Assembly: GCA_018821535.1 (NCBI GenBank)
Contig: JAHJLV010000016.1
Coordinates: 116,010-180,009, forward strand
Length of the DNA: 64,000 nucleotides
Reading direction: 5' to 3'
Origin: Pseudomonadota bacterium
GTDB taxonomy: Bacteria > Desulfobacterota > Desulfobacteria > Desulfobacterales > Desulfobacteraceae
In this document: piece by piece, positions 57,050 to 59,207 of the stretch
Layout of the letters: each line of letters starts with the position of its first letter
Position numbering within the stretch: the first letter of the stretch is position 1
Program-made: the position numbers and the translations under genes
Notes under the pieces: generated by a model
Databases searched by the model: none
The model's input: the letters and a program-made list of their open reading frames with translations, nothing else
Told to the model about the DNA's origin: nothing

Positions 57050-57262
57050 ATGGCCTCACAGAAAATAACACTGAATGTGGAAGGAATGACCTGCGGACAT
57101 TGTTCAGGAACGGTTCAAAGAACGCTTGAAGAAATCAAGGGAATCCGTGATGTATCCGTTGACCTTGACGGCAAAAAAACCACCTTTGAAACTGACAATG
57201 ATGCGCTTGTTGAAACAGCAATCCAGGAAATTACCGAAGCCGGGTACAAGGCTTTCAGATAA
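57050..57262 (+). CDS. Heavy-metal-associated (HMA) chaperone, CopZ/MerP-like, no signal peptide
   Basis: VEGMTCGHC, AGY C-terminus, 70 aa, AGGAG SD. Confidence 0.9.
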   Translation: MASQKITLNVEGMTCGHCSGTVQRTLEEIKGIRDVSVDLDGKKTTFETDNDALVETAIQEITEAGYKAFR

Positions 57263-57289
57263 TGGTGTCAAAAAATTTATAAGGGAAAA

Positions 57290-58465
57290 ATGAATCCATC
57301 ATCAGACACTGCCCCGAAAAAGACCGGATTGTCAACCACCGGAATCAGCATTATGCCGTCCATGGACACTTCGATTTCAACGGGTGCAGCTCAAAACACC
57401 GACCCTTTGGCAGCATATGAAAAACCCGGATATAAACTGCAGTCTTTTGTAAGCCACTTTATCAGAACCGAGGCCGGAGATATCCCGGTAATTAAAACGC
57501 GCCCTGGCAAAGACGACCTGTTTTCAAGCTTTTATGTCCGTTGCGGTATCAACCGTCACCGCTATGCTGTTGCGCCCGGATTATATGCTGTGGGTTCACC
57601 GGATAAAACCAGTGAAGTCCTTGTTACGGCAAATTTCAAGCTGACCTTTGATCATCTGAGAAAAGAACTTGAAAAGATCAATGCCTGGATTCTGGTTTTA
57701 GATACCAAAGGCGTTAATGTCTGGTGTGCGGCAAGCAAGGGAACCTTTGCCACCCGGGAACTTGTGGCAAGAATCAAGGCTGTATCGCTTGAAAAAATAG
57801 TGGATCATAAACAATTGATTGTCCCTCAGTTGGGTGCCACCGGAGTCAGCGCAAAAGAAGTCAAAAAGCTGTCCGGCTTCAGGGTGATTTTCGGCCCCAT
57901 CCGGGCAAAGGATATTCCGGCCTTTTTGAACAATGATAAAAAAGCTGACAAACACATGCGGCAGGTGACCTTTACCCTGTATGAACGCTTTATCATCACC
58001 CCTGTTGAAGTCCAGATAGTGCTGAAACCTGCGCTGATCGCAGCACTTATCCTGTTTGTCCTGTCAGGAATCGGCCCTGAAATATTTTCTTTTTCAAACG
58101 CCTGGCAACGAGGCCTTCTGTGCGTGTCTGCCATGGTTTCCGGAATTGTTTCCGGTGCTGTTATCACCCCTGTTCTGTTACCGTTTGTCCCGGGAAGGGC
58201 CTTTGCCCTGAAAGGTATGATTACCGGCAGTATTGTGGCCCTGATCATCTTGATTCTATCCTCTGCGGCTGCAAGCGGTGCTTCCGGATTTGCAGCCCTG
58301 TTTCTTTTCAGTGTATCCATCAGCTCCTATCTGGCCATGAATTTTACAGGAACCACCCCGTTTACATCTCCATCCGGCGTGGAAAAAGAAATGAAACAGT
58401 ATATCCCGGTCCAGCTGGGTGCGCTTGTGCTGGCAGCCGGGCTGTGGATGTATTCAGCATTTTAA
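57290..58465 (+). CDS. hgcA: Mercury methylation corrinoid protein HgcA
   Basis: PGLYAVG, VTANFKLTFD, DTKGVNVWCAASKGTF, PQLGATGV, FGPIRA; C-terminal TM helices; FTGTTPFTSPSGV; followed by hgcB. Confidence 0.93.
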   Translation: MNPSSDTAPKKTGLSTTGISIMPSMDTSISTGAAQNTDPLAAYEKPGYKLQSFVSHFIRTEAGDIPVIKTRPGKDDLFSSFYVRCGINRHRYAVAPGLYAVGSPDKTSEVLVTANFKLTFDHLRKELEKINAWILVLDTKGVNVWCAASKGTFATRELVARIKAVSLEKIVDHKQLIVPQLGATGVSAKEVKKLSGFRVIFGPIRAKDIPAFLNNDKKADKHMRQVTFTLYERFIITPVEVQIVLKPALIAALILFVLSGIGPEIFSFSNAWQRGLLCVSAMVSGIVSGAVITPVLLPFVPGRAFALKGMITGSIVALIILILSSAAASGASGFAALFLFSVSISSYLAMNFTGTTPFTSPSGVEKEMKQYIPVQLGALVLAAGLWMYSAF

Positions 58466-58480
58466 AATAAGGATTTTGGC

Positions 58481-58771
58481 ATGGAAGATTTAAGATATCT
58501 GGATGATGTATCCACCCTGGTGCTTGACCAGGAAAAATGTATCGGATGCACCCTGTGTACCCAGGTGTGTCCCCAAAGTGTATTTGAAATGCAGGGAAAC
58601 AAGTCTCAAATTGTAGATTTTAACGCCTGCATGGAATGCGGGGCCTGTGTAAATAACTGCCCGACCCAGGCCATCCGGGTCAGCCCGGGGGTTGGCTGAG
58701 CAGCCTATATTATCCAGGTCTGGATAAAGGGAAAAGAAAATGCAACCTGCGGCGATGGGAGGTGCTGCTAA
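58481..58771 (+). CDS. hgcB: Mercury methylation ferredoxin HgcB, probable selenoprotein (UGA at 58697-58699 read as Sec73)
   Basis: Two CxxCxxCxxxC motifs including CMECGAC; the frame continues past PGVG-UGA as AAYIIQVWIKGKENATCGDGRCC* (96 aa total, terminal CC). Confidence 0.9.
58704..58730 (+). other. Bacterial SECIS-like hairpin
   Basis: TTATCCAG-GT-CTGGATAA perfect stem starting 11 nt after the UGA, extended by CCT/AGG; apical AGGUCU resembles the E. coli fdhF SECIS. Confidence 0.8.
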
Positions 58772-58772
58772 A

Positions 58773-59207
58773 ATGACAAATAAATTAAAAATACTTTTTC
58801 TGTGTACAGGGAACTCCTGCCGAAGCCAGATGGCTGAAGGCTGGACAAGACATTTAAAAGGTGATCAGATTGATGTGTATTCTGCAGGGATTGAAACCCA
58901 TGGTTTAAACCCGCATGCGGTATCTGTCATGGCAGAAGCAGGAGTCGATATCTCCGGCCAGAAATCCACCCGTGTCTCTGATTATACCAGCCAGAACTTT
59001 GATTATGTCATCACTGTGTGCAGCAATGCCAACGAAACCTGTCCTTTTTTTCCGGGACTGACCAGCCGCGTCCATATGGGGTTTGATGACCCTCCGAAAA
59101 TGGCAGAAGCATTCCAGAGCCCTGAAGAAAAACTTGACTGCTATCGAAAGGTCCGGGATGAAATAAAAGAGTATGTTTTATCCCTGCCTGAAAGTCTGAC
59201 CCGCTAA
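58773..59207 (+). CDS. arsC: Thioredoxin-dependent arsenate reductase (LMW-PTP fold)
   Basis: CTGNSCRSQMAEG, TVCSNANETCP, FDDP; start refined to 58773, with a GGAGGT SD at 58758-58763. Confidence 0.88.
   Translation: MTNKLKILFLCTGNSCRSQMAEGWTRHLKGDQIDVYSAGIETHGLNPHAVSVMAEAGVDISGQKSTRVSDYTSQNFDYVITVCSNANETCPFFPGLTSRVHMGFDDPPKMAEAFQSPEEKLDCYRKVRDEIKEYVLSLPESLTR

Follow-up and report, generated by a model that had tools for sequence, protein, structure and literature searches.

A CopZ-like chaperone gene probably joined to hgcAB by lineage-specific operon fusion in Desulfobacula

The window analysed here is a 64,000-nucleotide (nt) stretch of contig JAHJLV010000016.1 (assembly GCA_018821535.1, positions 116,010 to 180,009) from a Desulfobacula genome. 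It carries the mercury methylation genes hgcA and hgcB directly downstream of a gene for a small HMA-domain protein and upstream of arsC. The locus probably represents a lineage-specific operon fusion of a resident housekeeping CopZ-like gene onto hgcAB. The preliminary description of this DNA had taken the HMA adjacency as a pointer to a possible Hg(II)-delivery partner for the methylation machinery. This was not borne out: the HMA gene is resident in the neighbourhood, its adjacency to hgcA appears to result from deletion, and only 2 of 237 loci elsewhere have an HMA gene near hgcA.

The comparison within the genus comprised 37 Desulfobacula genomes, 31 of them with hgcA. HMA orthologs with 55–72% identity were present in 29 of the 37 genomes as a single-copy gene, and a search of 24 genomes from the order's other families gave no match above 42% identity. 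HMA and hgcAB occur together in 27 genomes, hgcAB only in 4, HMA only in 2 and neither in 4. Gene maps revealed a common backbone of ychF<, yhbY<, HMA>, [HD<, (ferredoxin-nitroreductase>), arsR-like>], hgcA>, hgcB> ... cdaA<, pfkA<, with [marR, methyltransferase] and [arsC, acr3] between hgcB and cdaA. Two genomes without hgcAB (G032, G034) have kept the HMA gene between pfkA and yhbY, and at least five hgcAB-bearing species (G003, G012, G013, G036 and D. phenolica) lack it. The HMA gene is thus a resident of the neighbourhood and independent of hgcAB. The cultured D. phenolica (L253, GCA_900105645.1) has an HD gene, hgcA with a CDC N-terminal motif, hgcB and arsC. It has neither an HMA gene nor an arsR-like gene and offers a natural comparator without both.

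Two layouts define the history of the junction. In layout T2, the HMA gene is followed by a terminator, a convergent HD-domain gene and arsR>hgcA>hgcB. This order is present in seven genomes of the genus and in the early-branching loci L062 and L065. The terminator is a strong, apparently bidirectional hairpin directly after HMA (G029, G031, G021, G011). The early-branching L066 also has arsR>hgcA, and this gene pair stands without HMA in Desulfotignum and in more distant relatives. The occurrence of arsR>hgcA in L062, L065, L066 and Desulfotignum identifies T2 as the ancestral and the direct HMA>hgcA order as the derived state. One T2 locus, L052 (G021), has hgcA split into two overlapping open reading frames (ORFs; L-coordinates 4097–5280), due to a frameshift or an assembly error.

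In layout T1, HMA lies directly before hgcA. It was found in 12 of the 31 hgcA-bearing species, the source genome included. T1 loci lack the T2-type terminator hairpin after HMA, and the arsR-like ortholog is absent genome-wide from all 12 genomes. The spacers range from −8 to +38 nt in the 11 junctions read and include start/stop overlaps of 8 nt in G017 and 4 nt (ATGA) in G014 and G019. The overlaps suggest translational coupling. The junctions differ in the surviving part of the hgcA 5′ end, and the HgcA N-termini keep or lose a Cys pair. An intermediate is preserved in G004, where the order is HMA>arsR>hgcA and the HD gene alone is lost. On a maximum-likelihood tree of HgcA, the T1 state needs six changes, at least two of which are forced by well-supported branches; this count of origins comes from the tree of one gene, in which many branches are unresolved. 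Tree and junctions together indicate that the direct layout arose at least twice, with different junctions. The HMA sequence has no T1-specific change.

The fusion probably proceeded as follows. The ancestral HMA gene would have stood alone beside yhbY, with its own sigma70 promoter and terminator, and hgcAB would have been set apart by the convergent HD gene, sometimes a ferredoxin-nitroreductase gene, and the gene of an ArsR-like regulator. A deletion in the lineage of the window would then have taken out the terminator together with the HD and arsR-like genes. Most such deletions would also have removed the hgcA 5′ codons for a GCGC motif. Recurrent deletion, or deletion followed by recombination, is the simplest account of the repeated T1 junctions. 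The outcome would be an HMA-hgcA-hgcB(Sec73)-arsC unit that is read from the promoter of the chaperone gene and has lost the regulator gene. The primary job of the HMA protein would be the buffering of Cu(I) or thiophilic metals, in a genome whose CopA-type ATPase has no adjoining chaperone gene. Any effect on methylation would be a by-product of co-expression and not an evolved delivery.

Four points weigh against this account. The recurrent tight junctions and overlaps could reflect selection for joint expression and not mere deletion. HMA and hgcAB co-occur more often than expected in the 37 genomes (Fisher p=0.013, uncorrected for phylogeny). Three T1 loci (window, G014 and G016) have lost every N-terminal Cys of HgcA, which would fit a thiol pair acting in trans. 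None of the curated CopZ and MerP models gave the HMA protein a score that reached its cut-off.

Regulators next to hgcAB are known. Pseudodesulfovibrio mercurii ND132 has an arsR-hgcA-hgcB operon (Goni-Urriza 2020, Gionfriddo 2023), and a regulator was located upstream of hgcAB in 112 genomes (McDaniel 2020). The window shares with arsR-hgcA-hgcB operons the hgcAB core and nearby ars genes, and the ancestral Desulfobacula layout also has an arsR-like gene before hgcA. Unlike these operons, the window and the loci of 11 other species have HMA in the place of the arsR-like gene, which is absent from the whole genome.

The four genes apparently form one transcription unit that is read from the promoter of the HMA gene (Table 1). 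In most Desulfobacula genomes, HMA is preceded by a conserved orthologous promoter of the type TTGACG-N17-TATTAT, and this is so in every layout of the downstream genes. A terminator scan detected none on the + strand between the four genes, and the consensus promoter scan revealed no promoter-like site from 57005 to 57290. The sole terminator match on the + strand is weak, has a 5-bp stem and is located inside hgcA (58064–58080); the total of matches in the region is little above that of shuffled sequences. Co-production of a thiophilic-metal chaperone with HgcAB in the source organism is very probable, as the genes look like one unit and the first encodes a cytoplasmic CxxC HMA protein. In the interpretation given by the preliminary description, this co-production stands as very likely; the linkage as a sign of dedicated Hg(II) delivery is not supported. 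Beside the −10 box of the HMA promoter, an imperfect dyad TCAATCAGATA-N10-TATCTGCATGA (56984–57015) overlaps the box, and about half of the orthologous HMA promoters have a block ...ATGATTCAA(C/A)T just 3′ of it. Dyad or block could be an operator for some regulator.

Table 1. Features of the HMA-hgcA-hgcB-arsC unit in the window.
Feature	Position	Strand	Basis
sigma70-type promoter-like site TTGATC-16-TATTAT before HMA	56978..57005	+	promoter scan
HMA, CopZ-like 70-amino-acid cytoplasmic metallochaperone gene, GMTCGHC; preceded by a ribosome-binding site	57050..57262	+	PF00403
HMA-hgcA spacer, 27 nt, ribosome-binding site AAGGGA, no hairpin; putative deletion junction	57263..57289	+	
hgcA, 391-amino-acid corrinoid protein, cap helix NVWCAASK	57290..58465	+	NF040863
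hgcB, 2x[4Fe-4S] ferredoxin, Sec73, C-terminal CC	58481..58771	+	NF040864
SECIS-like hairpin UUAUCCA-GGUC-UGGAUAA	58710..58727	+	in minimum free energy and centroid fold
arsC, putative thioredoxin-type LMWP arsenate reductase, conserved start ATG 58773	58773..59207	+	

The HMA protein resembles CopZ most. Pfam matched PF00403 with 61.8 bits over profile positions 1–62 of 62. The N-terminus reads MASQKITLNVEG (also given as MASQKITLNVEGMTCGHC), GMTCGHC occupies residues 12–18, and the absence of a signal peptide indicates a cytoplasmic protein. CopZ models are the best NCBIfam matches: NF047957 (58.7 bits, cut-off 85), NF033795 (57.9, cut-off 91) and NF033794 (52.9, cut-off 95). The MerP model TIGR02052 gave 40.1 bits against a cut-off of 92.55. 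The nearest solved relatives are metal-binding domains of Cu-ATPases and CopZ (6ff2), with MerP slightly weaker. The protein shares with CopZ/Atx1 proteins (CopZ of B. subtilis and E. hirae; 6ff2) the size of about 70 amino acids, the single HMA domain, the GMxCxxC loop, the missing signal peptide, the best-matching models and a CopA-type ATPase in the genome. It differs from CopZ in its score below the cut-off, its location away from copA, csoR and copY, and its position at the head of an hgcAB-arsC unit. It has the HMA fold family and the Hg(II)-binding MTCxxC motif in common with MerP. Unlike the periplasmic MerP, it has no signal peptide and no merT/merA context.

The source genome (4.43 Mb, 98% complete) has no other free-standing HMA ORF. 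Five further HMA domains form the N-terminal parts of three P1B ATPases. One of these enzymes, encoded on contig C11, shows CPC, YN and MxxSS as its Cu(I) signature and is the only CopA-type ATPase of the genome; no chaperone gene lies beside it and no copZ upstream. The other two look like Zn/Cd-type enzymes. The HMA gene is not linked to copA, csoR, copY or cueR, its neighbours being a PsiE gene and hgcA. No protein of the genome reached the MerA cut-off (best 381 versus 454 bits). This best match is a 719-aa ORF on contig C40 (25989–27338) without a detected HMA domain, and probably another pyridine-nucleotide disulfide oxidoreductase. A role of HMA as partner of an efflux pump, where the gene is not beside hgcA, was rejected: judged by eye from their sequences alone, the downstream genes do not look like CusCBA. 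They resemble a cyclase, an FGE-type enzyme and a cNMP-binding membrane protein.

HMA genes near hgcA in other lineages were surveyed within ±4 kb of hgcA in three locus sets. The first comprised 80 loci of named genomes from several phyla, from which the four loci of the Desulfobacula clade were set aside, leaving 76. The second comprised 116 loci found in 401 evenly sampled Desulfobacterota genomes, and the third 45 loci from 401 Bacillota genomes, 5 of the 45 with flanks of 1.5 kb only. The HMA profile was built from sequences of the genus and the ATPase domains of the source genome; it picked up the divergent HMA domains in both G205 and G780, and it agreed with a Pfam whole-genome scan of 80 hgcA-bearing Desulfobacterota among the matches listed. 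HMA genes were present at 0 of the 76 loci in the first set, 1 of the 116 in the second and 1 of the 45 in the third. By chance, at most about 0.8% of 9-kb windows would contain one, as calculated from the HMA content of these 80 genomes (best 150 matches), and about 1.6–1.9 loci were expected. The observed 2 of 237 thus gives no general enrichment of HMA near hgcA outside the genus, in a survey that did not extend to Archaea, Chloroflexota and the PVC group. This is the outcome of the survey of HMA genes next to hgcA that the preliminary description had proposed as a check.

The two cases differ in context from the window. The Desulfobacterota genome G205 has hgcA-hgcB-copZ-copA. The Bacillota genome G780 has hgcA-hgcB-arsR-arsC-copZ, followed by the start of an HMA-bearing ORF that is cut by the contig end and presumably encodes an ATPase. 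Direct adjacency in both is, by a rough estimate, somewhat above chance and fits the known clustering of hgcAB with metal(loid)-resistance genes. The hgcAB-ars linkage, cited as known in the preliminary description, is established (PMC7438021), and NW2_scaffold_10600 with HMA/CopZ, ArsR and ArsB was read as metal resistance (Gionfriddo et al. 2020). As in the window, the small HMA genes of G205, G780 and NW2_scaffold_10600 are on the same strand as hgcAB and within a few hundred bases; ars genes are nearby in G780 and NW2_scaffold_10600. In G205 and G780, HMA comes after hgcB and is followed by a P-type ATPase gene (presumed in G780), with which it forms its own resistance module, whereas the HMA gene of the window is upstream, alone and leads the operon. 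At the G205 locus (L162), copies of a 23-nt element, ACGCTCTGCGCTTTGCGCTCTGC, stand ahead of the copZ-like gene and again ahead of the gene for the CopA-type ATPase, both downstream of hgcB (about 5290–5335 and 5620–5660). The element could be a shared operator.

A dedicated chaperone is the first alternative to the operon fusion. The CxxC motif of HMA would take up cytoplasmic Hg(II) and hand it over by ligand exchange, either to HgcB (at Sec73 or the C-terminal Cys pair) or to HgcA, and would replace in trans the N-terminal Cys/Sec pair lost by this HgcA. The tightly operonic layout, the stop/start overlaps in relatives and the recurrence of the juxtaposition on the HgcA tree are in line with this role. 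HMA domains, such as those of MerP and Atx1, bind Hg(II) in vitro. The N-terminus of HgcA adds further arguments. Residues 1–55 (57290–57460) form an extension without any Cys or Sec (no TGA), and the usual KLCSYV reads KLQSFV. Most HgcA have PCUGP or CC in this region (Haft 2022 preprint). The motif here is CCGPPxGP in the order's other families and GCGC and/or SCST in the majority of Desulfobacula. GCGC is present in T2 HgcAs, where HMA is distal, and missing from most T1 HgcAs. The CU/CC motif of HgcA places a soft-metal thiol/selenol pair before the corrinoid domain, and the CxxC of HMA is encoded before the same domain; unlike the CU/CC motif, the HMA pair sits on a separate folded protein.

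The distribution of the genes argues against such a chaperone. HMA is kept where hgcAB is absent, five species have hgcAB without HMA, the other lineages show no enrichment near hgcA, and the HMA sequence did not change with the T1 layout. The genomes G001, G020 and G024 have neither the GCGC motif nor arsR nor an adjacent HMA; G023 and G006 have both CC in HgcA and an adjacent HMA. Loss of the Cys pair therefore tracks the loss of arsR, or the deletion, and not HMA adjacency, and a strict rule by which HMA replaces the N-terminal Cys pair was rejected on these five genomes. An HMA-HgcA fusion was not seen in the best 120 of 7614 HgcA relatives, which had PF03599 only and no HMA; all were Desulfobacula-like, so they are uninformative on fusions elsewhere. 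A dedicated delivery chaperone is therefore unlikely. Hand-over of Hg(II) by HMA is possible, with comparative support limited to the predicted co-transcription. A narrower version, in which HMA was co-opted in the T1 lineages as a thiol-pair donor in trans that loads Hg(II) onto HgcB or HgcA in place of the N-terminal Cys/Sec pair reduced or lost in these HgcAs, and the fusions, with their loss of the ArsR-like regulator gene, were selected for it, seems quite unlikely. If true, the co-opted HMA would be the first dedicated substrate-delivery component of mercury methylation. No paper proposing an HMA protein as a partner of HgcAB was found in the literature.

Protection by co-expression is also improbable. 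HMA would keep Cu(I) or excess Hg(II) off the Fe-S clusters, corrinoid and selenol of HgcAB, and would act with ArsC as a small module that detoxifies thiophilic metals and metalloids. The frequent location of hgcAB in metal(loid)-resistance neighbourhoods, with ars genes, G205, G780 and the scaffold of Gionfriddo 2020 as examples, and the closure of the unit by arsC are consistent with this function. It is opposed by the lack of a linked exporter at the window locus and by the same pattern of HMA persistence and absence, and the cases outside the genus occur at about the chance rate for ±4 kb. That HMA and hgcA are mere neighbours, with hgcA expressed independently from its own promoter in or just after HMA, is highly improbable: a consensus scan cannot exclude promoters and the spacer is AT-rich, but the scan gave no promoter-like site from the HMA promoter (57005) to the hgcA start (57290), spacers are short or overlapping in 11 species, and the terminator of the T2 orthologs is lost.

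The route of Hg(II) to HgcAB and the control of hgcAB expression both matter for mercury biogeochemistry, and the preferred reading, operon fusion of a resident CopZ-like gene, gives no answer on the first. Closely related species of Desulfobacula nevertheless offer a clean natural experiment with three layouts: the chaperone gene is separate from arsR-hgcAB, is fused to hgcAB in a genome without arsR, or is missing along with arsR. Comparing these layouts bears on the influence of a CopZ-like protein on methylation and on the effect of losing an ArsR-like regulator. The locus is also a warning that adjacency alone is no proof of a delivery function: descent and deletion account for the linkage, which is not a general feature of hgcAB loci.

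The identities of the methylation genes are well supported. ORFs and Pfam/NCBIfam models confirmed the preliminary description in its four co-oriented genes, separated by 27, 15 and 1 nt on the + strand, in the cytoplasmic MTCxxC protein as first gene (GMTCGHC, 70 amino acids, no signal peptide) and in the absence of a terminator between the genes. HgcA matched NF040863 with 428 bits (cut-off 275; positions 2–323 of 325, NCBIfam). It has the equivalog score, the cap-helix Cys and the C-terminal membrane domain that define the family; the N-terminal CC/CU motif, which membership does not require, is absent. The start codon is supported by a conserved LSTTGISIMPSMD block common with orthologs. 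The cap helix NVWCAASK (57716–57739) has Ser for Gly. This variant is not unique to the source genome, as it is also present in the HgcA of L023 (G052) from another family of the order.

HgcB matched NF040864 with 124.5 bits (cut-off 99) when the in-frame TGA was read as residue 73. The protein has two CX2CX2CX3C motifs, U73 and an RCC end, as expected for the family. Under translation table 11, hgcB stops at TGA 58697–58699, and the frame runs on to TAA 58769–58771. The 1-nt gap between hgcB and arsC exists only if this TGA is read as selenocysteine (Sec). TGA is present at codon 73 in 36 of 36 relatives of the Desulfobacula/Desulfotignum/Desulfobacter clade and the conserved AAYIIQVWIKGKENASCG..CC continues the frame after it; in the order's other families, Cys takes this position. 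The selenocysteine insertion sequence (SECIS)-like hairpin is 11 nt past the UGA, and its loop starts 21 nt from the U of UGA. The GGUC loop is supplied by a Val codon GTC (IIQVWI), which is specific to the Sec-bearing clade; Cys-bearing HgcB relatives have T, G or S there. The tRNA-Sec is encoded on contig C58 of the source genome. From these features the Sec reading appears sound. Sec73 has already been reported in about 6% of HgcB proteins (Haft 2022 preprint), and the preliminary description was right to name Sec/Cys thiols in HgcB. A link between Sec73 and the HMA gene was rejected: all members of the wider clade have Sec73, in every type of locus.

ArsC matched PF01451 with 78.7 bits and TIGR02691 with 157.7 bits, slightly under the cut-off of 174.3. 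It has the P-loop CTGNSCRS (CX5R) and a downstream Cys pair, VCSNANETC. In several relatives, arsC also follows hgcB. An Rfam scan of the window matched no family.

Upstream of the unit, about 8 kb (49130–56828) separate yhbY (48646–48972) from HMA, two genes that are adjacent in most relatives. The interval codes for an AMP-binding enzyme, an SDR, two further ORFs, a PAS/sigma54 activator and psiE. Control of the unit by this PAS/AAA+ activator (54456–56204) was rejected, as no sigma54 promoter was found upstream of HMA. The best match of the activator is PrdR-like and under the cut-off. A near-consensus sigma54 site is located on the − strand at 54367–54382, ahead of the SDR gene.

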